From positions 48,756 to 112,755 of the forward strand of contig CAWJMP010000007.1 of assembly GCA_963844075.1 (NCBI GenBank): a stretch of 64,000 nucleotides of DNA. Direction: 5' to 3'. Of the stretch, positions 20,644-52,917 are shown one piece after another. This stretch comes from an uncultured Thermoleophilia bacterium. Lineage in GTDB: Bacteria; Actinomycetota; Thermoleophilia; Gaiellales; Gaiellaceae. A program made the translations under genes and the position numbers. Numbering within the stretch: position 1 is the stretch's first letter; each line of letters opens with the position of its first letter. The notes beneath the pieces are model-generated. The model was not told the origin of the DNA and searched no databases. It saw only the letters and a program-made list of their open reading frames with translations.

Positions 20644-20768
20644 CGGGGGAGTCTCCTTCGTGGATCACAGGGGGTTGGACGCGCGCATCGTGGGTCCGAT
20701 TCGTCATTCGCGCGTCTCGGTTGCGTAAGGCGCTCGTAAAGCACTCGCAGCGGAGGCAGAGGAGAAGG

Positions 20769-20852
20769 TGCGGGCGAGAGGAGTCGAACCTCCAAGAGCC
20801 GAAGCCCACCGGGACCTAAACCCGGCGCGTCTGCCAGTTCCGCCACGCCCGC
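20769..20852 (-). tRNA. tRNA-Leu (anticodon TAG)
   Basis: Manual cloverleaf: acceptor GCGGGCG/CGCCCGC, anticodon arm CCGGG-TTTAGGT-CCCGG, long variable arm, T-arm GGAGG-TTCGACT-CCTCT. CCA is not encoded. Confidence 0.9.
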
Positions 20853-20880
20853 GCGGTCAGTGACAAGCGTAGTTGCTCGC

Positions 20881-22359
20881 TCAGGCGCGCACGGCGACCG
20901 TGCGCGAGACCCCGATCGGCCGCCGCCTGCGGTCGAGCGCCGTCACCGACACGTGCCGCGGCCGGCCGGGAACGCGAATCGCCGTCTCGAAGCCGCGCGC
21001 GGGGGCCGTCGCTACCGGCGCCAGCGCGCCCGGCGTGGCTCCTGCGGCGACCCGCCACGCGGTCGTCTCGGTGCTGCCGTTCCAGCTCGCGTAGACGTTG
21101 ACGACACCGCCGCGTCTGGTCGCCGCGACCGCGGGTTTCGTCGTCGGCTTGCCGACCCACGTGTTGCGGAAGGACCGGTAGTTCCATGCGCCCCCGTCGA
21201 ACTTCGCATCGAACCGGACGTCGCCCGCAGGGCCGAACTCGGTCACGTACGGCTGCGTGCCCCAGCCGACGAGCATCGCGTCTCCACTCAGGACCTGCGC
21301 GTTGCCCATCGCGACCGACATGAGGGGGTCCGGGTGGCGGTAGTCCTGAAGCAGGTCGGCACGCATGCCACCGAGATCGAGCCCGAGCCGGATCGCGCGG
21401 GATTGCTGTGACGACGGGCCGGGGCCGTCGTCGAACAGGGTGATCGTCCCGTCCGGATGGGCACGCGCGTCGTGCTGGTACATGAACGTGGCGCCGGGCC
21501 CGAGTGCGAAGTCGCTGCTCCTGCCCGCGAGCCGCCACAGCACTGCGCCGCTCGACCGGTCGATCTTGTAGACCGCGGAAGTGTTGCGGGCGGAGATCAG
21601 GAGATTGCCGTCGAGATCCACGTCGATCGAGTTGACGTGGAAGTAGTCGAACGGGTCGAGGACAGGCGCGTAGGTGTCGGTGAGCGGCACATGGTCGAGG
21701 CTGTGCCACTCGAAGAGCACACGGCCCGTCGCCACGTCGATCTCCTGGACGATCGAGTCGAGCACGGTGCCCGCGGCAGGCCCACCGACCGAGGTGAGAT
21801 CTGCCTGCACAGGGTTGTAGACCGTGATCAGTGCCGTGCCCTTCGCGGTCAACAGGAACTCGTGGACGTCGGCCTTGTAGCCGTTGCCCGCCTGGACGCG
21901 CGCAACCGTCCGATAGGCCTGGTCGAGGATCACGCACTCGCCTTCACCGGTGCCGATCTTCGAGATCGCTCCTTCCCACCAGGTCAGCACCGGCTTGCCT
22001 CGGAAGATCTGCCGGCGGACGTTGATCGCAACCGTGTCGAGCGGCTTGAAGAACACGATATTGCCGGCGTTGTCGACGATCATCGGCCCGCGCTGGCCCG
22101 GCCCGGTCAGCGTCGAGACGAACAGGTAGCCGGGGGCCGGATGGTTGAGGGTCGACACGGTGAGCGTCGGGGGGCGCAGCGCCGGCTCGCTCACGTAGGC
22201 GGCTGTTCCCGGAGGCGCGCTCGCGGCGCGGAGCCCGGCTCGCGCCCAGTGCGGCACCGCCAGCGCCGCGAGGGCGGCGCCCGAGGCGGCCACGAAGTCC
22301 CTCCGCGAGAGCTTGCTGCCCACGATGCGATCCAACACCATTCGCCGGACGATCACCAC
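20881..22359 (-). CDS. Arylsulfotransferase (ASST) family protein with Tat-type signal
   Basis: Intact 492 aa. It has the SRRDFVAASGAALAALAV twin-arginine leader and ASST-like beta-propeller sequence (HEFLLT, DYFHVNSIDVD, YKIDRSSGAVLWRLAG). Confidence 0.85.
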   Translation of the reverse strand: MVIVRRMVLDRIVGSKLSRRDFVAASGAALAALAVPHWARAGLRAASAPPGTAAYVSEPALRPPTLTVSTLNHPAPGYLFVSTLTGPGQRGPMIVDNAGNIVFFKPLDTVAINVRRQIFRGKPVLTWWEGAISKIGTGEGECVILDQAYRTVARVQAGNGYKADVHEFLLTAKGTALITVYNPVQADLTSVGGPAAGTVLDSIVQEIDVATGRVLFEWHSLDHVPLTDTYAPVLDPFDYFHVNSIDVDLDGNLLISARNTSAVYKIDRSSGAVLWRLAGRSSDFALGPGATFMYQHDARAHPDGTITLFDDGPGPSSQQSRAIRLGLDLGGMRADLLQDYRHPDPLMSVAMGNAQVLSGDAMLVGWGTQPYVTEFGPAGDVRFDAKFDGGAWNYRSFRNTWVGKPTTKPAVAATRRGGVVNVYASWNGSTETTAWRVAAGATPGALAPVATAPARGFETAIRVPGRPRHVSVTALDRRRRPIGVSRTVAVRA

Positions 22360-22391
22360 GGGTGCGGCACGGCCATGTCGAACGAAGGAAG

Positions 22392-22463
22392 TGGCCCCGG
22401 GTGGAATCGAACCACCGCACGGAGCTTCGAAGGCTCCCGCTCTGTCCGCTGAGCTACGGGGCC
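22392..22463 (-). tRNA. tRNA-Arg (anticodon TCG)
   Basis: Acceptor GGCCCCG/CGGGGCC, anticodon arm GGAGC-CTTCGAA-GCTCC, T-arm GGTGG-TTCGATT-CCACC. Confidence 0.9.
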
Positions 22464-22484
22464 GAGCGCCGTAAGCCTAGCGAG

Positions 22485-22558
22485 GGTGGCGAACGGGACT
22501 CGAACCCGCGACCACCGGGACCACAACCCGGGGCTCTACCAACTGAGCTACCGCCACC
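22485..22558 (-). tRNA. tRNA-His (anticodon GTG) with encoded G-1
   Basis: An extra 5' G precedes acceptor GTGGCGG. Anticodon arm is CCGGG-TTGTGGT-CCCGG, T-arm GCGGG-TTCGAGT-CCCGT, discriminator C. Confidence 0.9.
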
Positions 22559-22567
22559 GTGCGCCGC

Positions 22568-23218
22568 TCATCGTAGCGGGGTCTCGTCGAGAGACTCACG
22601 GAGCGCGACGAGCGAGTCGAAGACTGCGACTGCACCGTGGTCACGCAGTTCCTGCTCCGACCAGCCGCCGGTGATGACGCACACGGTCTGCAGACCCGCG
22701 TTGGCGGCTGCCTCGATGTCCCATCGCGAGTCGCCGACCATGACGGCATCACTCGTGCCTGCCTTGGCGAGCGCCGCATGGACGACGTCCGGGTGTGGCT
22801 TTGTCCGCTCGACGTCGTCGGAGGTCGTCCAGCCGTCGACCAGCTCGCGCACCTGCAACTCGTCGAGGAAATGCTCGAGATCATCGGTGCTCGCCGACGA
22901 AGCGAGCACGACAACGAGGCCGCGTCGTTTCAGCTCCTCGACGAGGGCGTGGGCGCCCTCGAGCGGCTCGCATTCGTCACGCAGAAGCGCGAACTCCTCG
23001 CCGGAGGCCGAGCGCAGCTCGTCGCCGAGCCTCTGCTCGACCTCATCGCCTGCGACGGCACCGACGAGCTGGTCGCCGCCCATGCCGATGTGGCGATGTA
23101 TCCGCCACATCGGCACGACGATCCCGGAACGGCGAAACGCGCGGTACCACGCGAGCGCGTGCTGGTAGTTGGCATCGACCAGCGTCCCGTCGAGGTCGAG
23201 CAGAGCGGCGGCGCTCAG
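22568..23218 (-). CDS. HAD-superfamily hydrolase (beta-phosphoglucomutase-like subfamily); CTG start
   Basis: This is the C-terminal 216 aa of ORF 22568..24496. LSAAALLDLDGTLVD carries the DxDxT nucleophile motif, followed by VLASSAS and MVGDSRWDIEAA. No ATG, GTG or TTG occurs in frame for about 70 codons upstream of the motif. Confidence 0.8.
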   Translation of the reverse strand: MSAAALLDLDGTLVDANYQHALAWYRAFRRSGIVVPMWRIHRHIGMGGDQLVGAVAGDEVEQRLGDELRSASGEEFALLRDECEPLEGAHALVEELKRRGLVVVLASSASTDDLEHFLDELQVRELVDGWTTSDDVERTKPHPDVVHAALAKAGTSDAVMVGDSRWDIEAAANAGLQTVCVITGGWSEQELRDHGAVAVFDSLVALRESLDETPLR

Positions 23219-23800
23219 GTCGCCGCCTTGCTCTTCTGCCGCTGCTCCGCGTGCTTGCCTTCGGCGAACTCCTCGATCATCTTCGCGTTGAAGGCGGGGA
23301 TGTCGTCGGGCTTGCGGCTCGTGACGAGGCCGCTGTCGACGACGACCTCCTCGTCGACCCAGTTGCCTCCGGCATTGCGAATGTCGGTCTGCAGCGTAGG
23401 CCACGACGTGACCTTGCGATCGCGGACGACCCCGGCCTCGACGAGCACCCACGGCGCGTGACAGATCGCCGCTACCGGCTTGCCGTCGTCGAAGAAGGAC
23501 TGGACGAACGCAACGGCGTTCTCGTCGCCACGCAGCTGATCCGGGTTGCCGACCCCGCCGGGGAGCATCAGCGCGTCGTAGTCGGCCGGGTCGGCCTCTT
23601 CCACCGTCCTGTCGACCTTGATGTCCTCGGCGGGATCGAAGTGGTCGAACGCCTTGATCGTCCCAGGATGAATCGAGATCAGCTCGGTACGCGCGCCGGC
23701 GCTCTCGAGCGCGCGGCGCGGCTCGACGAGCTCGACCCGCTCGACCATGTCGGCCGCGAGAATCGCGACAGTTCTTTCCCTGCAGGCTCTGTTCAGCCAT
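23215..23800 (-). CDS. DJ-1/PfpI family protein; frame interrupted at 23772-23777
   Basis: ATG 23800 has GAGGAGGG upstream and reads MAEQSLQGK. The next frame continues TVAILAADMVERVELVEP...PVAAICHAPWVL (nucleophile-elbow Cys). The two join if one A is removed from GGGAAAGAAC. Confidence 0.85.
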
Positions 23801-23871
23801 CAAGACCCTCCTCGTTGGTTCGGTTTCCAGCCAGGAGGTTCCCGGACCGTGTCCCGGCAAACCGGCGTGGG

Positions 23872-24732
23872 TTACCGCGCGAGCACGGCGACCGTGGCGT
23901 GTGCGGTGCGCGCCTTCGAGCTGACGAAGACCGTCGCCTCGATCCGCTGCGACCCGGCCGAGACGCGCCAGATGCACGTCACAGCACCCCTGGAGAACCG
24001 GCGGAGCAGCACGTGCAACCTGCCGTGGCCGCCCGAGGCCGCGCAGCCGGTGCTTCCCCGGGCGAGCGGCTGGAGGGACGGAGTGAGCACCGCTCGCGCG
24101 TGCACGGCGAGAAGCCCGGACTGCTGCGTGACACGAACCTTCTGGAGCGTGATCCCGGCGTGGGCGGACGGCGGGGACTTCCCGGAAGGTGGGCTCGACG
24201 CGGAGTCGTCCGCGAGGCCGAAATCCTGCGCCCAGACGGGCTCGCCGCCGGCCGACTTGGCCGCCCCGGCGCCGGTGACGACGTAGGCGGGATTCTCGAT
24301 GTTCGCCCGGTGACCGGGCGACTGCAGCCAGGCGGCGAGCACCGCGGCGGGCGTCAGGAAACCCGCGGCGATGTTCTCGCCCCAGCCGCCGTGGTAGCCG
24401 CACGCGACGATGCGGTCGCCTGCGGCGCGCGCCACCGGCGGCGCTGGGTCGTCGTGCGCCATGTAGCCGTAGGTCGCCATGTGACGGGCCTTCCACACGG
24501 CGGAGGCGGTGAGGGCGGGTGACACCTTGAGGGCGCGCAGCCCCAGCGCCGCCCGGTGCTGGTTGACGAGCCGGATCACCTCGTCGGCGAACGCCGCGTT
24601 GGCCGGCCGAAAGTTGGCACCCGGGGTGCAGTCACCGGCGACGGTGGCAGGCAGACCGAGCGGGGCGAGCACCAGGGCCGCGACGCAGGCCGCGAGCAAT
24701 GCTGGGAGAGGCCGAACCACGAGCGGGCCCAC
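23872..24732 (-). CDS. Secreted CAP/SCP (YkwD-like) domain protein with C-terminal extension
   Basis: Intact 286 aa. A signal peptide is followed by LVNQHRAALGLRALKV...MAHDDP...GWGENIA...WLQSPGHRANI. Confidence 0.75.
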   Translation of the reverse strand: MGPLVVRPLPALLAACVAALVLAPLGLPATVAGDCTPGANFRPANAAFADEVIRLVNQHRAALGLRALKVSPALTASAVWKARHMATYGYMAHDDPAPPVARAAGDRIVACGYHGGWGENIAAGFLTPAAVLAAWLQSPGHRANIENPAYVVTGAGAAKSAGGEPVWAQDFGLADDSASSPPSGKSPPSAHAGITLQKVRVTQQSGLLAVHARAVLTPSLQPLARGSTGCAASGGHGRLHVLLRRFSRGAVTCIWRVSAGSQRIEATVFVSSKARTAHATVAVLAR

Positions 24733-24822
24733 CGTACCAGGCCCCTCCGACGGGGCTGCCGGTGCTCTCGCAGGCGCCTGGGCCAGGCGAAATCGGCCGA
24801 AAACGGGAGAGGCGAGCCGAGC

Positions 24823-25266
24823 TCAGGCGTGAACCCGCACCCACGGCATCCAGGCCGCGGGCGGCGGGACCATGAAGCCGAGGTGGGTTCCGTTCGGCAC
24901 GACGAGCCGCCAGCGGCCGACGCGCGGAAGCCGGACGGTCGCCCGCCAGGTGTATCTGCCTGTACGGACGAGCTTGATCTCGAAGCCGTCGCTTGGGATG
25001 CGTGCGTGCGCCAGTGACGAGTCACCGGTGACCGTCCCGACGACGTCGTACCAGCTCTTCCCCGGCGCCACTGCGATCAGCCGAAGCCAGTCGGTCGCCG
25101 GGACGACGTAACCGGTGCGCACATAGACGGCGAACGGCCGGCCGACACGCGGCGTGGCATCGCCCACCTTGACCGAGATGTGTCCTTTCGCGATCGCGGC
25201 CGGGGCCGCGACGGCGCAGAGGCCGAGCACGAGGACGAGGCCGAGCACGAGGACGAGCGCTCTCAT
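24823..25266 (-). CDS. Secreted hypothetical protein
   Basis: The last 147 aa of ORF 24823..25737. It has the signal peptide MRALVLVLGLVLVLGLCAVAAPAAIA and G/C-rich third codon positions. Confidence 0.6.
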   Translation of the reverse strand: MRALVLVLGLVLVLGLCAVAAPAAIAKGHISVKVGDATPRVGRPFAVYVRTGYVVPATDWLRLIAVAPGKSWYDVVGTVTGDSSLAHARIPSDGFEIKLVRTGRYTWRATVRLPRVGRWRLVVPNGTHLGFMVPPPAAWMPWVRVHA

Positions 25267-25319
25267 GGTGTTTCTACGTCTCGGGCGCGCCGGAGGTCCC
25301 AGCCGGCGCGTCCTCGGCG

Positions 25320-25649
25320 CTACGGCAACGGGATGTCCGACCGGGTCCGCGCTTCCGCCCGCTCGGCCTCCGTCAGCTCTGCGGGCCGAACCGGGGTGAC
25401 GAGCGACCAATGTCCGCCGACAGGGCAGCGCTGGTACCGCCACCAGCCCAGTCGAAGCGCCTTGAACGACACGCCCGGGATCCAGAACGTCGTGAACAGG
25501 TGACCCTCGCGGCAGCGGACGATCAGCTTCCCGCCCATCGGGTAGCCACGCAGCTTCATCGCGATCGGCTCGGCGACCACGGACGCGGCTCCGATCAGCC
25601 AGAGCCGCCTCTGTTTCCCGCGTGATCTGCGGCTCTTGTGCCGGCTCAC
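25320..25649 (-). CDS. Hypothetical protein with basic N-terminus, one TM helix and a Cys/His motif
   Basis: GTG 25649 gives VSRHKSRRSRGKQRRLWLIGAASVVAEP...RCREGHLFTTFWIPGVSFKALRLGWWRYQRCPVGGHW. The upstream part of ORF 25320..25925 is only a tRNA read as protein. Confidence 0.5.
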   Translation of the reverse strand: MSRHKSRRSRGKQRRLWLIGAASVVAEPIAMKLRGYPMGGKLIVRCREGHLFTTFWIPGVSFKALRLGWWRYQRCPVGGHWSLVTPVRPAELTEAERAEARTRSDIPLP

Positions 25650-25867
25650 CCGGGTCAGTGTGCCTGCAGCTCGTTCGCGGCGGATGAGGAACCCGTCGGC
25701 ACGATCGTGGCTTCGGCTCAGGCGGTGCGCTCCGCAAGGTGTCGATGCCGCTCTGGCACGGGCAGTCCCGCCTCCGTGAGCGCCCGGTTGCGCTCCGCCG
25801 ACGGCGCTGCGGGCCCGGGGGCTCTCAGGACGGGAGCGGGCGAGGAACCGGCGGACGCCGGTGGAGG

Positions 25868-25939
25868 TGCGCCCGGGAGGATTCGAACCTCCGACCAACG
25901 GCTTAGAAGGCCGCCGCTCTTCCACTGAGCTACGGGCGC
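25868..25939 (-). tRNA. tRNA-Arg (anticodon TCT)
   Basis: Acceptor GCGCCCG/CGGGCGC, anticodon arm GCGGC-CTTCTAA-GCCGT, T-arm GGAGG-TTCGAAT-CCTCC. Confidence 0.9.
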
Positions 25940-25986
25940 GTGCCGTGAGCGTAGCGCCGGTTCTGGCGATAGCCGCGGTGCCGCGA

Positions 25987-27068
25987 CTAGCCCGGCGCGG
26001 GTGGGATCGGTTCCGGCGACGCGACTGGCCCGCGGCGGAGCGCGAGCTGGTCTCGCACGATCACCTGGATCGCCCCGGCGACCGGGAATCGCCGCGAGCG
26101 CGCCGAGAATGCCTGCAAGCTCGGCCCCGACGAGCACCGAGACGAGCACGACGAGCGGCGAGAGCTGGACCGTGCGGCCGTAGATCACCGGCTGGAGGAA
26201 GTGGTTCTCGATCTGCTGGTAGACGATCACGAAGACGACGACGACGATGCCCGCCGGCACCGAGTGCAGGAAGGCGACGATCGTCACGACGATCCCGGCC
26301 ACGGTCGCGCCCGCGAGCGGGATCAGATCGAGGAACGCGACGAGCAGACCGAGCGCGACCGCGTACGGCACGCCCATCACGAGCAGCACGATCGTCATCG
26401 ACGCTCCGGCGATCAGGCTGATCAGGATGTTGCCGGTGACGTAGCCGCCGACCGTCTTGTAGATGTCGTCGCCCACCTTGCCGCCAGCGCTCCTGCGAAT
26501 GCGCGGGAAAGAGCGAGTAGACGCGCTCGACCCATGCTCGACCTTCGAGCAGCATGAAGAAAGTGAGAAAGACGATCGTCACCGTCGCCGCAATGATCGT
26601 GATGATGCTCTTCGTGATCGATACCGCGACGCCGGAAAGCCCGAGCACCTTCTTCGCGCCGCCGGCGTCGACCTGTGCGCGCACCTTCTCGACCACGTGG
26701 TACTTGCGCTCGAGGAACCCGAGCCTGCCTCGGCCGTGCGTCAGGTCGTGCACGTAGTTCGGTAACGCTTGCACGAAGCCGTTGACCTCGTCGATCAGCT
26801 TCGGCACGAACGTCGCGCCGACGGCGGCGACGATGATGAGCACGATCAGATAGGCGATGGCGATCGCGGCGCCGCGCCCGACCCGCCCGCGGCGCTGGAT
26901 CCAGCCGACCAGCGGATCGAGCGCAAGAGCGAGGAACAGCGCGATCACCACCCACGCGAGCACATGCCGCGCGACCCACACCACCTCGAGCGTGACCGCG
27001 ACCGCGAGCACGATCAGCAGCACACGCAAGATCGTGCGAGGACGTAGATCGACCACGCGCTCCGTCAT
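25987..27068 (-). CDS. AI-2E family transporter (PerM/UPF0118); two frame interruptions (about 26480 and 26082-26083)
   Basis: MTERVVDLRPRTILRVLLIVLAV... is in ORF 26061..27509. KVGDDIYKTVGGYVTGNILISL...FLDLIPLAGATVAGIV...QQIENHFLQPVIYGR is in ORF 25718..26476. The tail PVAGAIQVIVRDQLALRRGPVASPEPIPPAPG is in the third frame and ends at TAG 25987-25989. Confidence 0.85.
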
Positions 27069-27116
27069 CACGGGCGTAAGGATCCTCTGCCGATCGGACG
27101 TTGGTACGGTGCCCGC

Positions 27117-27413
27117 GTGAGTCTGCGCTCGGCACCGGTGATCGAGCATGCGACGCTGCCCGGAGGCGGCACGGTCACGGTGTGGGTGGGGATCCCCGAC
27201 GATCCGTACATCAACGACAAGTCGGCGTTGAGGACGGTCGACGTGCAGCTGCACGAGGGAAACGCGGTGCTGGCCTCGCTGTCGACGGTGCTCGAGCCGG
27301 GCCAGGCGAGCGAGGCGCTCGCTCTCGCGCGCGAGGTGAAGGCGGCACTCGAAGCCGGCGAGATCGGCCTGCACGCACACGAGCTCGAGCCGTTCGCCGA
27401 CCGGCTCCGGTAG
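27117..27413 (+). CDS. Hypothetical protein
   Basis: ORF of 98 aa with strong G/C third-position bias. I recognise no family. Confidence 0.55.
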   Translation: MSLRSAPVIEHATLPGGGTVTVWVGIPDDPYINDKSALRTVDVQLHEGNAVLASLSTVLEPGQASEALALAREVKAALEAGEIGLHAHELEPFADRLR

Positions 27414-27452
27414 CGGCGCTCCCCGGAAAAGCGCCACGCTCGGCAGATGGAG

Positions 27453-27525
<73 letters not shown>

Positions 27526-27547
27526 CTGCCGACTAGGTTAGCGAGCG

Positions 27548-28303
27548 GTGCTGCTCGCTCACACGCATTCGCCGTACGCGTGGCAGGCGGACGTCGACAC
27601 CACCGTGGTCGTGCCGGTGCTCTCGCTGCTCTACCTGTTCGCCGTCGGGCGGCTCGGCGCGCCGCGCTGGCGGATCGCCTGCTACGCGGGCTCGATGGCC
27701 CTGCTGGCCGTCGCGTTCTGGACGCCGCTCCATCACCTGGGCCTGCACTACCTGCTCACGGCGCACCTGCTGCAGAACGTGATCCTCGCTGAGTGGGCGC
27801 CGCTGCTGGCCGTCCTCGGCGCGTCGCGCCCGCTGGCCGCATGGCTCGCACGGCTTCGCCTCTGGCGCCTGGCCACGCTTCCCGCCGTCGCCTTGCCGCT
27901 CTGGCTCGGGAACTACTTCATCTGGCACGTGCCTGCCGTGTACGACGCCGCACTGCGCCACCAGGCATGGCTGATCCACCTCGAGCACGGCTGCTACTTC
28001 GCGACGGGGCTCCTCTTCTGGTGGCCGCTCCTTCAGGACGTGCCCCGGCGCCTCGCCTCCGGCGCACGGGCGGCCTATGCGTTCGCGTCGTTCGTCCTCG
28101 CGGCACCGCTCGGGCTCCTGCTGGCCTTGGTCCCCAAGCCAGCGTACGACTTCTACGTGCACGCGCCGCGGCTGTGGGGGCTGTCGCCGCTCGTCGACCA
28201 GCAGATCGCCGGCGTGACGATGGCCGGCGAGCAGGCGATCGTCCTCTTCGTCGTCTTCCTCTACTGGTTCCGCAGGTTCCTCGCCGAGGAGGGCGCTATT
28301 TGA
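27548..28303 (+). CDS. Cytochrome c oxidase assembly factor CtaG-like membrane protein
   Basis: Intact 251 aa and polytopic. HLLQNVILAEWAPLLAVLG...WHVPAVYDAAL...HLEHGCYFATGLLFWWPL are typical of the Caa3-CtaG family. Confidence 0.8.
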   Translation: MLLAHTHSPYAWQADVDTTVVVPVLSLLYLFAVGRLGAPRWRIACYAGSMALLAVAFWTPLHHLGLHYLLTAHLLQNVILAEWAPLLAVLGASRPLAAWLARLRLWRLATLPAVALPLWLGNYFIWHVPAVYDAALRHQAWLIHLEHGCYFATGLLFWWPLLQDVPRRLASGARAAYAFASFVLAAPLGLLLALVPKPAYDFYVHAPRLWGLSPLVDQQIAGVTMAGEQAIVLFVVFLYWFRRFLAEEGAI

Positions 28304-28676
28304 GGCAGCCGGTCACCAGAGCGAGGTCGTTCTCGCTCGGGTGCACGTGCCAGAGCTGAACCGAGTTCTGATCCTGCTGGAGAACGTCGTTGACACCGAC
28401 ATTCTTCGCGGCGAACCTCCGGTAGGCGGCCGCGATGTTGTCGGCGTCGGAGACCGTCGCACCGAAGACGACCGTCACGAAGTTGTGGCTCGTATGAATC
28501 TTCACCGCACCCCCCGTCGCGGTCGAAGCGACAAAATCGAGCGAGCCGCCGAGCCGCACCGGTTTCGAGGCGAGGCACGCCTTGGTCTTCGCGAGGGTGT
28601 AGTTGTGCGGCGAGCTCTTGCCGCACCCGGCTGCGAGGGCCGTAAACGCGATTCCAACGAGGATCATCCGCCTCAC
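28296..28676 (-). CDS. Lipoprotein, function unknown
   Basis: ORF of 126 aa with the lipobox LAAGC in MRRMILVGIAFTALAAGCGK. Confidence 0.7.
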   Translation of the reverse strand: MRRMILVGIAFTALAAGCGKSSPHNYTLAKTKACLASKPVRLGGSLDFVASTATGGAVKIHTSHNFVTVVFGATVSDADNIAAAYRRFAAKNVGVNDVLQQDQNSVQLWHVHPSENDLALVTGCLK

Positions 28677-28731
28677 GGCGCGTCAGTGTACGGGTCGGAT
28701 CGGCCTGTCTCAGCCCGCTATTGTCCCCGCC

Positions 28732-29944
28732 GTGCCCGGAGCCGACCAACGTCTCGAAAGCTATGCGCGCCTTGCAGTCCAGGTCGGGCTGAACCTGCAA
28801 CCGGGTCAGATACTCGCGATCAACGCCTTGATCGAGCATGCGCCGCTGGCGCGCGCGATTGCGCGGGAGGCCTACGGCGCGGGCGCGAAGTACGTCGACG
28901 TCCTCTATTCGGACCAGCATGTGCGGCGCGCCCACATCGAGCTCGCGAGCGAGGATCTCCTCGGATACTCACCGCCCTGGCTGGTGACGCGGCTGCGCGA
29001 GCTCGGCGAGCTGGGCGGCGCGCTGTGTGCGATCACCGGCAACCCGGAGCCGGAGCTGCTCGCCGACCTCGACGGCACCCGCGTCGGCAAAGCGCGGATG
29101 CGAGACGTCGCCGAAGCGTCGCTCAGGCTCACCGACGGCCTTTGCAACTGGACGATCGTCGCCTACCCGAACGCAGGCTGGGCACAGACGGTGTTCGGCG
29201 AGCCCGACGTCGAGCGCCTCTGGAAGGCGGTCGGCCAGGCGGTTCGCCTCGACCAGCCCGACCCGGTGGCCGCCTGGCGGGACCACATCAGCCGGCTCGA
29301 GCAGCGCGGCCGACGACCTGAACGAGCGCCGCTTCGACCACCTGACCTACCGCGGCCCGGGCACCGACCTGATGATCGGCCTCCATCCCGACTCGAACTG
29401 GCAGGCGGCGCTCGACGAGTCGAACGGCATCAAGCACGTCGCCAACATGCCGACGGAAGAGGTTTTCACGACGCCCGACGCGCGGCGTGTCGAGGGGACG
29501 GTGCGCTCAACGTTGCCGCTGCAGATCCAGGGCAACATCGTCCGCGGCCTCGAGGTGCGGTTCGAGGGCGGGCGGGCAGTGGAGGTGCGGGCGGAATCCG
29601 GCGAGGACGTGATGCGCGCGCACATCGCAACCGACGACGGCGCAACCCGGCTCGGCGAGGTGGCGCTCGTCGACGGCCGCTCGGCCGTCGGGAACACGGG
29701 GCTCGTCTTCTACGACACGCTGTTCGACGAGAACGCCTCGTCGCATATCGCCCTGGGTGCGTCGATCCTGCAGGCGCTGCCGTGGGCACCGGCTCTCTCC
29801 CCCGAAGAGCGGCAGGAACGCGGCGTGAACCAGTCGTCGATCCACACCGACTTCATGATCGGCTCCGACGAGCTCGAAGTAGACGGCGTCACCAAAGACG
29901 GCGAAGCGGTCCCCCTCCTGAGAAACGGCGACTGGCAACTCTAA
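28732..29944 (+). CDS. M29 family aminopeptidase (AmpS/PepS-like); frame interrupted at 29308-29309
   Basis: GTG 28732 gives RLESYARLAVQVGLNLQPGQ... in ORF 28603..29958. The C-terminal part is in ORF 29027..29944 (NMPTEEVFTTP...DTLFDENASSHIALG...HTDFMIG). The two join if one G of a GG pair is removed. Confidence 0.88.
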
Positions 29945-29964
29945 GGCAAGCGCAGTAGAGCCGA

Positions 29965-29987
29965 ACGCCCGGGCTGCGCCCGGGCGT
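29965..29987 (+). terminator. GC-rich hairpin 20 nt after the aminopeptidase stop
   Basis: ACGCCCGGG-CTGCG-CCCGGGCGT, a 9-bp perfect stem with no T-tract. Confidence 0.4.
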
Positions 29988-30070
29988 GAGCCCTGAGGCA
30001 GCCGATCACACGCGCACCGCCCTGAGCGAGCCGAACAGCGAGGGCCCCGTGTGCGAGGAAGAAGGGGGCA

Positions 30071-30097
30071 CGCGGGGGAAACCCGGTTTCCCCCGCG
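30071..30097. terminator. Perfect 13-bp inverted repeat between the aminopeptidase and tRNA-Pro (possible bidirectional terminator)
   Basis: CGCGGGGGAAACC-C-GGTTTCCCCCGCG, lying 6 nt from the 3' end of tRNA-Pro. Confidence 0.5.
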
Positions 30098-30102
30098 CTT
30101 GA

Positions 30103-30177
30103 TCGGGACGGTCGGATTCGAACCGACGGCTTCCGCCTCCCAAAGGCGGCGCTCTGACCAGGCTGAGCTACGTCCCG
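30103..30177 (-). tRNA. tRNA-Pro (anticodon TGG)
   Basis: Acceptor CGGGACG/CGTCCCG, anticodon arm CCGCC-TTTGGGA-GGCGG, T-arm GTCGG-TTCGAAT-CCGAC. Confidence 0.9.
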
Positions 30178-50825: not shown

Positions 50826-51323
50826 GTGTCCGAGCGCGCCTGGATCAGGGGTGCGAAGCGCGGATCGATCGCCGATCTCGAGCGGCTCTTCCGCGAGCAC
50901 TGGCCGCGCGCTCACAGGGCGGCATTCCTCGTCACCGGCGATGCTGCGGCGGCCGAGGACATCGCCCAGGAGGCGTTCCTGGCCGCCGTGCGCAACCTCG
51001 ACCGCTTCGACCGGCGCCGGCCGTTCGCGCCCTGGCTGCATCGCATCGTCGTCAACCGCGCGATCGACTGGACGCGCGCACGCAAGCTTCGGGCCGAGAT
51101 CGAGCTCGGGGACTCGCTCTCCGCTCCCCCACTCCCGGAGCGCGACAACACGACCCTCGGGCGGATCGCCGAGCTCGCACCCGAGCATCGCGCCGTGGTC
51201 GTCCTGCGCTACGTCCTCGAGTACACGCCCGGTGAGATCGCCGAGCTGCTCGACCTGCCGCGCGGCACCGTCAACTCACGACTGCGCCGCGGGCTCGACC
51301 GGCTGAAGGAGCTGCAAGCGTGA
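50826..51323 (+). CDS. ECF (group IV) RNA polymerase sigma-70 factor
   Basis: Intact 165 aa. Region 2 is EDIAQEAFLAAVRNLDRFDRRRPFAPWLHRIVVNRAIDW and region 4 is VVVLRYVLEYTPGEIAELLDLPRGTVNSRLRRGL. Confidence 0.9.
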   Translation: MSERAWIRGAKRGSIADLERLFREHWPRAHRAAFLVTGDAAAAEDIAQEAFLAAVRNLDRFDRRRPFAPWLHRIVVNRAIDWTRARKLRAEIELGDSLSAPPLPERDNTTLGRIAELAPEHRAVVVLRYVLEYTPGEIAELLDLPRGTVNSRLRRGLDRLKELQA

Positions 51324-52434
51324 GCACCGCCGAGGAGCGCACCTGGGAAACGGTCCGGCGCGCCTACGAGGAGCGGCCTCGAGGGCGTCGCCGCGACCAC
51401 CGGCGCCTCGTTGCGCTGGCAGCGCTCGTCGCGCTCGGCAGCGTCGTGACCGCCGCCGTCCTCTCCGCGCCGGGCCGCGCGGTCTTCGAACGTGTGCGGG
51501 AGGCGGTCGGCGTCGAGCACGCTGCGCCGGCCCTCTTCTCGCTGCCGGCACCGGGACGCCTCCTCGTCGTCTCGCCCGGCCAGGGCGGCGTCTGGATCGT
51601 CGAGCCCGACGGGCTCAAGCGGCGAATCGGCTTCTACCGCGATGCCCGCTGGTCGCCACACGGCCTCTACATCGTCGCCACGCGGCCCGACGAGCTCGCG
51701 GCGCTCAGCCCCGGCGGCGGCGTCCGCTGGTCGCTCGCCCGGCGCGGAGTCCGCTTCCCTGCGTGGGAGGGAACGCGAACCGACACACGCATCGCCTACG
51801 TGACCGACGGCGGCCTCCGGGTCGTCGCGGGGGACGGCACGGGCGATCGGCTGCTCGACAGGTCCGGCGGCAGTACACCGCCCGCCTGGGATCCCGCGCG
51901 GATCCACACACTCGCCTACTACGCGAAAGGTGCGATCGTGCTGCGCGCGGACGATGGCAGCCTCGTCTGGCGCAGGCCGATCACAGTGACGCCGACCAGT
52001 CTCGACTGGTCGTCCGACGGCCGCTATCTCGCCGTCTCCTCGCGGACGCGCATCATCGTCCTCGATGCGTCCGGGCACGTTCACCGTACGATCTCCGAGC
52101 TCGGGGCGAAGCGTCTCAGCGGCGCCTTCGAGCCGGGCTCCCATCGCCTCGCCGTCGACATCCGGCGCGCGAGCCGAAGCGAGGTTCAGCTCGTCGACCT
52201 CGACCGGACCGCCTCCGTACGGCTCCTCTTCGCCGGGCCCGGTGCCTTCGGCGATCTCGCCTGGTCGCCGAGCGGCCGGGTCCTCCTCGTCACCTGGCCG
52301 GCCGCGAACCAGTGGATCTTCCTGCACGGCACGCGCGCCAGCGCGGTCGGCAACATCCGCGAGCAGTTCCGGCGCGCCGGCGCGAGCCGGCGGCGCCGCT
52401 GCAAGTGGCCGGCCGCTGGTGCTGCGCCGGGTAG
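51320..52434 (+). CDS. Single-pass membrane protein with extracytoplasmic TolB-like beta-propeller (putative anti-sigma/sensor partner); C-terminus unresolved
   Basis: It has a GTGA overlap with the sigma gene. A short cytoplasmic head is followed by the TM helix LVALAALVALGSVVTAAVL and then WSPHG/WSSDGRY/WSPSGR repeats. After ...NIREQF the frame is unclear. One frame ends ...PLQVAGRWCCAG at TAG 52432-52434. Confidence 0.65.
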
Positions 52435-52443
52435 GTTTCGCCG

Positions 52444-52917
52444 ATGGTCGGCGTCGGCGAACGCGTTCCGAACGCGACGGTCTTCCTCGGGCCGAACGAG
52501 CCCGTGACGATGCTCGAGCTGGTCGAGGACGGACCGAAGCTGCTCGTCTTCTACCTGTTCGACTGGTCGTCGACCTGAACGAACGAGCTGGAGCTCCTGC
52601 GTGACAGGAGAGAGGAGTTCGACGCAATCGGCGTGCAGCCGATCGGGATCTCGCGCGACTCTCCCTGGACGCACATCGCCTGGGCGCAGGCACTGGATTT
52701 CAACTTCGGGCTCCTCTCCGACTTCAACGGCGAGGCGGTCCGCGCGTTCGGGATCGGCTGCGAGTTCCGGGGCTTCCGCGAGGTGGCGAGCCGAACGACC
52801 TTCCTCGTCGGGGAGGACGGCGTCGTGCGCGCCCTGTGGCGGTACGAGACCGGCGACGTGCCAGACCTCGACGAGTGGCTCGAGGCGGCCCGCCTGCTCA
52901 CGGCCAAGAGGAGCTAG
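52444..52917 (+). CDS. ahpE: AhpE-type 1-Cys peroxiredoxin with in-frame TGA (codon 45) at the peroxidatic-Cys position; candidate selenoprotein
   Basis: ATG 52444 reads ...KLLVFYLFDWSST, then TGA 52576-52578, then TNELELLRDRREEFDAIGVQPIGISRDSPWTH...SDF...ASRTTFLV... to TAG 52915-52917, all in one frame. The ORF track lists only 52633..52917. Confidence 0.8.
52594..52610 (+). other. SECIS-like stem-loop downstream of the in-frame UGA
   Basis: CTCCTG-CGTGA-CAGGAG is a 6-bp stem with a 5-nt loop containing GU, starting 15 nt after the UGA. An outer helix GAAC (52577-52580) / GTTC (52617-52620) is possible. Confidence 0.5.

Follow-up and report, generated by a model that had tools for sequence, protein, structure and literature searches.

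We analysed a stretch of 64,000 nucleotides (nt) from an uncultured Thermoleophilia bacterium of the family Gaiellaceae (assembly GCA_963844075.1, contig CAWJMP010000007.1, positions 48,756 to 112,755 of the forward strand), which is called the window in what follows. It contains a peroxiredoxin gene with an in-frame TGA at the codon of the peroxidatic cysteine (Cys). Judged from sequence comparison, this gene very probably encodes a genuine selenocysteine (Sec) peroxiredoxin, in which the UGA is decoded as Sec at the active site. A first-pass annotation of the window had arrived at the same core reading, that is, a Sec peroxiredoxin with UGA at the peroxidatic position and a hairpin resembling a selenocysteine insertion sequence (SECIS). 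This reading is strongly supported by the Sec/Cys pairs among the orthologues, by coding selection before as well as after the TGA, and by a hairpin that is confined to the TGA forms.

In-frame TGA and the downstream RNA element

The frame opened by ATG 52444 on the + strand reads MVGVGERVPNATVFLGPNEPVTMLELVEDGPKLLVFYLFDWSST, meets TGA at 52576-52578 as codon 45, and then continues in the same frame to TAG 52915-52917, exactly as had been described at the first pass. The open reading frame (ORF) 52444-52917 has 157 codons with one internal in-frame TGA, and no insertion or deletion (indel) lies between its halves. The active-site peptide across codon 45 is LLVFYLFDWSST-X-TNELELLR, where X is the residue encoded at the TGA. 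The GC content is 69.7% in the window and about 90% at third codon positions in the genome. The program-made ORF list does contain the 3' fragment 52633-52917 (94 amino acids, aa), but it is not the only piece reported, as the first-pass annotation had it, since 52444-52578 (44 aa) is listed as well. The features of the gene are as follows, with the evidence for each in brackets.

52444..52917, + strand: putative full selenoprotein ORF, AhpC/TSA peroxiredoxin of the 1-Cys/Sec type (PF00578, AhpE alignment, codon-position variability in 65 orthologues)
52576..52578, + strand: in-frame UGA, putative Sec codon 45, at the peroxidatic Cys column (Sec/Cys pairs, alignment with Cys45 of AhpE)
52591..52610, + strand: invariant 20-nt block GAGCTCCTGCGTGACAGGAG (nucleotide identity across TGA forms)
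52594-52599 (5' stem), 52600-52604 (apical loop CGUGA) and 52605-52610 (3' stem), + strand: predicted SECIS upper hairpin (published constraints on bacterial SECIS elements, folding)
52580..52621, + strand: possible lower stem of uncertain register, either CGAAC 52580-52584/GUUCG 52617-52621 or CGAGCU 52584-52589/AGUUCG 52616-52621 (minimum free energy, MFE, structures)
52633..52917, + strand: C-terminal fragment P0072 of 94 aa, reported by automatic gene calling (ORF list, public protein collection)

The homology search returned relatives of two types. The first type is full-length (156-159 aa), about 75% identical to the window protein, and carries FDWSSTCTNEM. The second comprises dozens of proteins of about 108 aa, about 80% identical, which all start with MELLRDRR. 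Since the Met of this start sits four codons past the Cys column, it is the signature of gene calls shortened by an upstream stop. For two of these fragment relatives (L001 and L002) we inspected the DNA, and it turned out that both have TGA at the same codon, intact flanking frames and near-identical nucleotides downstream. Altogether, the C-terminal profile has 5,823 matches among database proteins at E<=1e-20; among the best 120 matches, 117 are calls of 104-113 aa, and the NCBI name for such fragment calls is “redoxin domain-containing protein [Gaiellaceae bacterium]”. The truncated automatic annotation that had been predicted from the window alone is thus borne out by the best database relatives, nearly all of which are called as fragments of about 108 aa.

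To survey codon 45, one genome per species (GTDB representatives) was scanned, which gave 458 relatives, and the codon analysis was made on the best 80 loci. These come from metagenome-assembled genomes (MAGs) labelled Thermoleophilia, Gaiellales, Gaiellaceae or, more broadly, Actinomycetes/Actinomycetota, with one exception labelled Burkholderiales. Codon 45 is TGA in 68 of the 80 species-representative loci and TGC or TGT in the other 12, so the orthologue alignment suggested at the first pass yields many pairs of TGA against TGC/TGT at this column. Every TGA form has at least 47 open codons upstream of the TGA and 107-117 codons downstream of it. For 65 non-redundant TGA forms, column entropy was averaged by codon position (1/2/3). 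The means are 0.375/0.213/0.834 in the 40 codons that precede the TGA and 0.404/0.371/0.928 in those that follow it; further upstream the mean is about 1.7 whatever the codon position. The dominance of third-position variability on both sides of the TGA indicates that both halves are translated, in one frame. TGA-bearing relatives with a decayed downstream frame, which the first-pass annotation had named as a sign against its reading, were not seen; the frames are intact and purifying selection is strong.

The phenomenon is also specific to this gene. When about 1.4 Mb of these genomes was searched for in-frame TGA in coding-like sequence, the only large recurrent family was the peroxiredoxin (61 loci by the filter), the next-largest group consisted of two loci in weak context, and all others were single. 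TGA is moreover the normal terminator of 36 of 66 TGA-form genes, which means that the recoding of UGA is local. A genome-wide reassignment of UGA is ruled out by these ordinary TGA stops and by the lack of any other recurrent in-frame TGA.

Two loci of the survey deserve a separate remark. One MAG (CAVRYT01, MFD06085.bin.2.155) carries the TGA-form gene on two contigs (L004 and L005) that are identical over 78 nt around the TGA; they are either a duplication or uncollapsed assembly copies. In the Burkholderiales-labelled MAG, a 13-kb contig (L024, JAICUZ010000037.1) holds a TGA-peroxiredoxin locus typical of Gaiellaceae, and this contig is probably mis-binned.

Directly after the TGA lies an RNA element that distinguishes the TGA forms from the Cys forms. 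Codons +5 to +10 (GAG CTC CTG CGT GAC AGG) are nucleotide-identical in 67 of the 67 TGA forms analysed, and codon +11 is AGA in 65 of them and AGC in 2. Three codons of this block (CGT, AGG and AGA) are rare Arg codons in a genome with about 90% GC at third positions, and synonymous sites just outside the block vary freely. In all 12 Cys forms, the corresponding stretch reads CT[C/G/T] GT[G/C] CG[C/A/G] GAC CG[G/C], with TTG in place of GT[G/C] in one of them, and the hairpin cannot form. At the protein level, codon +7 accordingly encodes Leu in the TGA forms and Val in the Cys forms, except for the single Leu encoded by TTG. Over the roughly 1.7 Mb scanned, the 17-nt hairpin motif was found 71 times, with exactly one copy at each TGA locus and none outside these loci.

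In the window, the hairpin CUCCUG-CGUGA-CAGGAG lies exactly at 52594-52610, where the first pass had placed it, with GU in its loop. We compared it with the published model of bacterial SECIS (bSECIS) elements (PMC13188914, Fig. 2 legend), which requires an apical loop of 3-9 nt in which G stands at position 1 or 2 and mostly has G or U after it, a 4-16 bp upper stem, a spacing of 16-37 nt between UGA and loop, and an MFE <= -7.5 kcal/mol. In the hairpin, the loop (C-G-U-G-A) is 5 nt long, the 6-bp stem is perfectly paired and the spacing is 21 nt, and the core folds with an MFE of -8.7 kcal/mol, in agreement with all four of these constraints. The bacterial SECIS fit that had been claimed for it therefore holds for the upper hairpin. 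In a 48-nt context, the folding energy is -15.5 to -16.6 kcal/mol (z about -2.3 to -2.5).

From these data, we propose how the gene may work. The ribosome would read from ATG 52444 through UGA 52576-52578 to TAG 52915, a read-through made necessary by the coding selection that acts on the two halves in a single frame. The invariant hairpin, 21 nt past the UGA, would act as the bacterial SECIS: SelB-GTP with Sec-tRNA(Sec) would bind the G-U of the apical loop while the UGA is in the A site, and Sec would be inserted. The enzyme would then reduce peroxide via a selenenic acid intermediate and would be recycled by an external thiol reductant, because no resolving Cys is conserved. The gene is probably expressed within a cluster consisting of an extracytoplasmic function (ECF) sigma factor, the uncharacterised protein p348, the peroxiredoxin and, usually, a DUF2269 protein, and expression within such a cluster would point to a stress-responsive antioxidant.

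Protein family, evolution and known relatives

For the Pfam search, Cys was put at codon 45. Residues 4-130 match PF00578 (AhpC-TSA) over profile positions 1-123 of 124, with E=3e-24 and 85.8 bits (cut-off 26). BLASTP against AhpE of Mycobacterium tuberculosis, for which we used a query 100% identical to PDB 1xxu, gives a colinear alignment over the full length with 34% identity (E=2e-22). In this alignment, U45 falls on Cys45, Ser42 on Thr42 and Arg117 on Arg116, and the alignments of the family show no variation at S42, C45 and R117. The first-pass annotation had stated that both halves are colinear with AhpE, that the TGA falls exactly on Cys45 and that the catalytic Arg is kept, with which the BLASTP alignment agrees.

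The assignment as “AhpE-type” stands in part. AhpE is the best match among characterised bacterial proteins by BLAST (34%), but archaeal 1-Cys BCP proteins are equal or better by sequence and structure. A phmmer search against solved structures ranks Bcp of Aeropyrum pernix (2cx3, 7.6e-19) and Bcp4 of Sulfolobus solfataricus (3hjp, 4.1e-16) before AhpE (2.4e-15). For the fold, we used the AlphaFold (AF2) model of the closest full-length Cys orthologue (P0003), which is 76% identical to the window protein. This model has a predicted local distance difference test (pLDDT) score of 92.5 and the thioredoxin-like fold of peroxiredoxins, in which helix 43-54 has residue 45 in its first turn. All of the 50 best PDB matches by Foldseek are peroxiredoxins. 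The best is Bcp4 (3hjp), with template modelling (TM) scores of 0.89/0.90, a root-mean-square deviation (rmsd) of 1.7 A and 33% identity, and AhpE (1xxu) ranks 13th (TM 0.84-0.87, rmsd 2.1 A). The label that can be defended is “AhpE/BCP-like 1-Cys peroxiredoxin”, rather than “AhpE subfamily” alone. NCBIfam contains no model that reaches its cut-off with the window protein; the PrxU model NF040737, which covers the Sec peroxiredoxin of amino-acid-fermenting anaerobes, scores 37.8 bits against an equivalog cut-off of 270.

The only column of the family that is universally Cys or Sec is the catalytic one, which indicates an enzyme of the 1-Cys type. Many orthologues have a C-terminal Cys (in the motif EACR), which is present in 43 of 70 TGA forms and 3 of 17 Cys forms; the window protein has none at this column (about 52879-52890). 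This Cys may be an optional resolving residue.

In a neighbour-joining tree, whose resolution is weak for such a short protein, the Cys-only outgroups are basal and ten Cys forms make up a clade inside the TGA forms. The tree and the single hairpin sequence together suggest that Cys was replaced by Sec once and was regained at least once afterwards. The Sec trait thus seems to have a single origin, from a Cys ancestor inside Gaiellaceae, while some lineages would have kept the Cys form or gone back to it.

Sec peroxiredoxins as such are an established family that includes BCP-like forms, so the first-pass remark that they exist is well founded. Prx (PF00578, TxxU) is an experimentally verified bacterial selenoprotein family with PrxU of Eubacterium acidaminophilum as a member (PMC13188914), and one survey found the Sec form in 78 organisms (PMC5029168). 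The Sec forms were inferred to have arisen repeatedly by Cys-to-Sec conversion (PMC1794560), and several of them are BCP-like, for example those of Geobacter metallireducens and Anaeromyxobacter (PMC1794560, supplement 4).

The window protein resembles this “[T/S]xxU” family (PrxU of Peptoclostridium acidaminophilum and the proteins of Geobacter metallireducens, Anaeromyxobacter, Syntrophus and Symbiobacterium) in many respects. Both belong to PF00578, have Sec (here putative) at the peroxidatic column in a [T/S]-x-x-U motif, have Cys homologues, and show a SECIS hairpin (predicted here) inside the coding sequence, right after the Sec codon. However, identity between the window protein and the sequence set of 2006 is at most 32%, mostly over partial length, and the flank differs (FYLFDWSSTU-TNE here, with Leu instead of the usual Pro). 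The hosts differ as well: those of known Sec peroxiredoxins are mostly anaerobic Deltaproteobacteria and Clostridia, whereas the present one belongs to Gaiellaceae, whose sole cultured species is an obligate aerobe.

Among the Cys enzymes, M. tuberculosis AhpE (Rv2238c) has 153 aa against 157 aa here, is colinear from end to end with T/S42, residue 45 and the Arg in register, and likewise lacks a conserved resolving Cys. It differs in having Cys instead of Sec, and its Pro38 is Leu here. The reductant of AhpE is mycoredoxin-1/mycothiol. The best solved-structure matches, Bcp4 of Saccharolobus (Sulfolobus) solfataricus (3hjp) and Bcp/PrxQ of A. pernix (2cx3), are archaeal Cys enzymes, and the A. 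pernix protein has a resolving Cys five residues past the peroxidatic one (CTKELC), where the window family has Glu. As for the RNA, the hairpin shares with the bSECIS prototypes of E. coli (fdhF/fdnG) the location directly after the UGA inside the ORF, the small apical loop, and G-U at loop positions 2-3. The E. coli SECIS has a bulged U in its upper stem, which is absent from the window hairpin. By eye, the hairpin seems to show no resemblance to the E. coli elements in primary sequence.

Sec-decoding machinery and rival explanations

Several results weigh against a Sec-decoded gene and should be set beside the evidence above. In the protein, the active-site Pro at position -7 (PxxxT/SxxC; codon 38, 52555-52557 in the window), which is nearly universal in peroxiredoxins, is Leu in 67 of 67 TGA forms, and Pro occupies this column in 11 of 12 Cys forms. 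The distant Cys homologues P0078, P0092 and P0108 also have Leu there, so the link between Leu and Sec is not strict, and the Pro/Leu pattern is compatible with either direction of change. In the RNA, the upper stem provides no covariation, because it is invariant in all TGA forms. The lower stem CGAAC/GUUCG is 91% paired without compensatory changes, RNAalifold prefers another register, and neither register beats shuffled sequences. The outer GAAC/GUUC helix, by which the first-pass annotation had closed the element, is thus plausible rather than established as a conserved feature, given its ambiguous register and lack of covariation. A synonymous G in codon +1 (ACG), fixed in 66 of 67 TGA forms versus 7 of 12 Cys forms, lends weak support to some lower pairing. 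Searches of Rfam at gathering and permissive thresholds gave no SECIS-type match to the element; Rfam appears to lack any family for such bacterial elements. More generally, no curated RNA or protein model was found that recognises the element or the family.

The remaining points of this kind concern the decoding machinery. We searched for it with tblastn, using SelA, SelB and SelD of E. coli and Miltoncostaea, and with ARAGORN for tRNA-Sec. None of selA, selB, selD and tRNA-Sec was found in the 64-kb window or in the loci of about 20 kb around 80 orthologues. Eight contigs bearing SelB homologues were traced, to seven MAGs, and none of them belongs to a MAG known to carry a TGA form. The Sec-decoding capacity of the TGA-form genomes themselves is thus assumed.

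For the class, Sec decoding is demonstrated, including in MAGs from the ENA accession series of L001 and L002. The cultured Thermoleophilia species Miltoncostaea oceani has selD-selA-selB followed by tRNA-Sec(UCA) on a plasmid/chromid record; the peroxiredoxin family was not found in the Miltoncostaea plasmid records. With its SelB as query, many homologues were obtained, of which the eight traced ones come from ERZ25039550, 541, 502, 524 (twice), 476, 499, and GCA_031376285.1. These do not overlap with the TGA-form MAGs of known sample id (ERZ25039539 and ERZ25039572), and one of the SelB-bearing MAGs is of the same accession series as L039, yet a different genome. In seven SelB loci (L086-L093; six MAGs, few with settled taxonomy), selA adjoins selB throughout, tRNA-Sec is present in three (L086, L087, L092) and selD in three (L090-L092). 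No informative orthologues were shared between the proteins of these loci and the peroxiredoxin loci or the window. One group of SelB proteins shares about 80% identity with a “Miltoncostaeaceae bacterium” protein, which belongs to a sister order and not to Gaiellaceae. Where SelB clusters are named at all, the labels are Miltoncostaeales/Miltoncostaeaceae only; since named entries are about 1-2% of rows, the lack of a “Gaiellaceae” label for SelB carries no weight. The selD genes seen (L090 and Miltoncostaea) are of the Cys type, so they offer no SECIS for comparison.

The SelB loci show some peculiarities of their own. Thermoleophilia SelB proteins are either about 500-523 aa or about 594-603 aa long (P0196, P0210, P0217, P0222 and P0224 versus P0160, P0197 and others; L086 10001-11560). 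The short proteins align with Miltoncostaea SelB at residues 5-367 and 504-593, so that about 135 residues are absent from the stretch that links the EF-Tu-like part to the last winged-helix domain. In L088 (5681-6004) and L089 (5693-6004), an ORF of about 105 aa resembling tetratricopeptide repeat (TPR) proteins is placed between selA and selB, with a 4-nt overlap with each. In L090 (3572-4423) and L091 (6159-8004), selD and selA are split or frameshifted near their ends; these are long-read MAGs, and the splits look like assembly indels rather than real truncations. Both L089 and L091 are from ERZ25039524. The former has the order ThiS-MoaE-selA-TPR-selB at 66% GC and the latter selD-selA(split)-selB at 76% GC, which means either a chimeric bin or two Sec systems in one genome.

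Among the rival explanations, the one that survives best is that the UGA is recoded to a residue other than Sec, either by hairpin-promoted insertion of Cys from a SelB-delivered tRNA-Sec-like tRNA or by near-cognate read-through. Such “recoding with Cys” tRNAs, which are tRNA-Sec-like and charged with Cys, have been described in a few bacteria. This explanation would suit the fact that no Sec machinery has been tied to any TGA-form genome, and the catalytic column evidently tolerates Cys, as the 12 Cys forms show. However, if Cys were the product, a simple change from TGA to TGC would suffice and would spare 68 lineages a 20-nt invariant element of rare codons. The hairpin fits a model that is specific to Sec, and the class has canonical selA and selD, the genes for making Sec. 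With near-cognate read-through (Trp, Arg, Gly), furthermore, the peroxidatic position would be taken by a non-catalytic residue. We thus consider non-Sec recoding improbable. A similarly small probability is given to a related view of the genomes, namely that the TGA-form Gaiellaceae have no canonical selA/selB/selC and read the UGA by a Cys-charged tRNA-Sec-like tRNA, a divergent SelB or SelB-independent read-through.

It is still less probable that the UGA is a true stop, which would yield a 44-aa peptide and perhaps a separately started C-terminal fragment, with the hairpin serving mRNA stability or regulated termination. Gene callers, including that of NCBI, do annotate the genes in this way (117 of the best 120 C-terminal profile matches are 104-113 aa), and an ATG occurs four codons past the TGA in about half of the genes. 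Over 66 genes, however, codon +4 is ATG in 32, CTC in 27, CTG in 5 and TTC in 2, so there is no conserved restart codon, and 29 of the 66 have CTC or TTC, which are not starts. The next start in the window is 19 codons downstream, and its use would remove the active-site helix. According to the P0003 model, a fragment that begins after residue 48 has neither the catalytic residue nor three of the beta-strands of the fold. A stop would also have to fall precisely on the catalytic Cys column, with the two halves kept in one frame without indels in 68 lineages and colinear with single-chain Cys homologues.

Finally, a sequencing or assembly error or a recent pseudogene in the window genome has a next to negligible probability: there is a probable indel in the neighbouring gene and many related MAGs are from long-read assemblies, but 68 species-level genomes, independent of each other and obtained by several projects and on several platforms for sequencing, share this TGA, with intact frames, strong purifying selection and a co-occurring invariant RNA element, and no other in-frame TGA recurs in these loci.

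Significance and gene neighbourhood

Taking the gene as a Sec peroxiredoxin, it is a lineage-specific addition to a class of selenoproteins already known, and it does not change the known kinds of system. What is unusual is its scale and setting, since it is very common in public data and belongs to an abundant soil family. Our literature search found no paper on selenoproteins in Gaiellales. We lean moderately towards the view that the proteins represent an undescribed Sec subfamily of AhpE/BCP-like peroxiredoxins and a signature selenoprotein of this abundant soil actinobacterial family.

According to a review, aerobic bacteria rarely retain selenoproteins (PMC13188914), and the sole cultured member of Gaiellaceae is an obligate aerobe (PMC6741124). 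A putative Sec antioxidant that strong selection maintains in 68 of 80 species, in a family with an aerobic cultured member, would contrast with this view of rarity. The natural Cys forms found among the Sec forms would offer a clean system to learn what Sec buys a peroxiredoxin in oxic soil. If it is true that these soil bacteria need selenium for their defence against peroxide, the availability of selenium in soil may shape their fitness. For annotation, thousands of records could be put right with a model made for this family, which would also flag the genomes as Sec users.

The peroxiredoxin gene is part of a conserved gene order. In 70 of 81 loci, an ECF sigma factor, p348 and the peroxiredoxin follow each other on one strand, and across the 81 loci a DUF2269 membrane protein is usually next after the peroxiredoxin. 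The two upstream genes of the window are as follows.

50826..51323, + strand: ECF-type sigma-70 factor, first gene of the conserved cluster (Sigma70_r2/r4; 83% identical to the orthologue of L001)
51320..52434, + strand: p348, uncharacterised protein of about 350 aa between the sigma factor and the peroxiredoxin (conserved synteny)

For p348, no Pfam family scored above its cut-off and there were only weak matches resembling beta-propellers; by its position, it may be an anti-sigma or partner protein of the sigma factor. Elsewhere in the window, six tRNA genes (Leu, Arg-TCG, His, Arg-TCT, Gly and Pro) are located within 10 kb on the - strand (20767-30177), none of which is a tRNA-Sec.

The p348 gene of the window itself seems to be slightly damaged. 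Its match to the orthologues is a single segment in frame 2 (51440-52369), after which the ORF overruns to 52507, into the start of the peroxiredoxin gene, and an alternative frame in this region stops at 52434, as in the relatives. A single indel error near 52370-52434, at the 3' end of p348, is the probable cause, which agrees with the first-pass remark that the errors of the window are mainly indels. This presumed indel leaves the peroxiredoxin ORF untouched.

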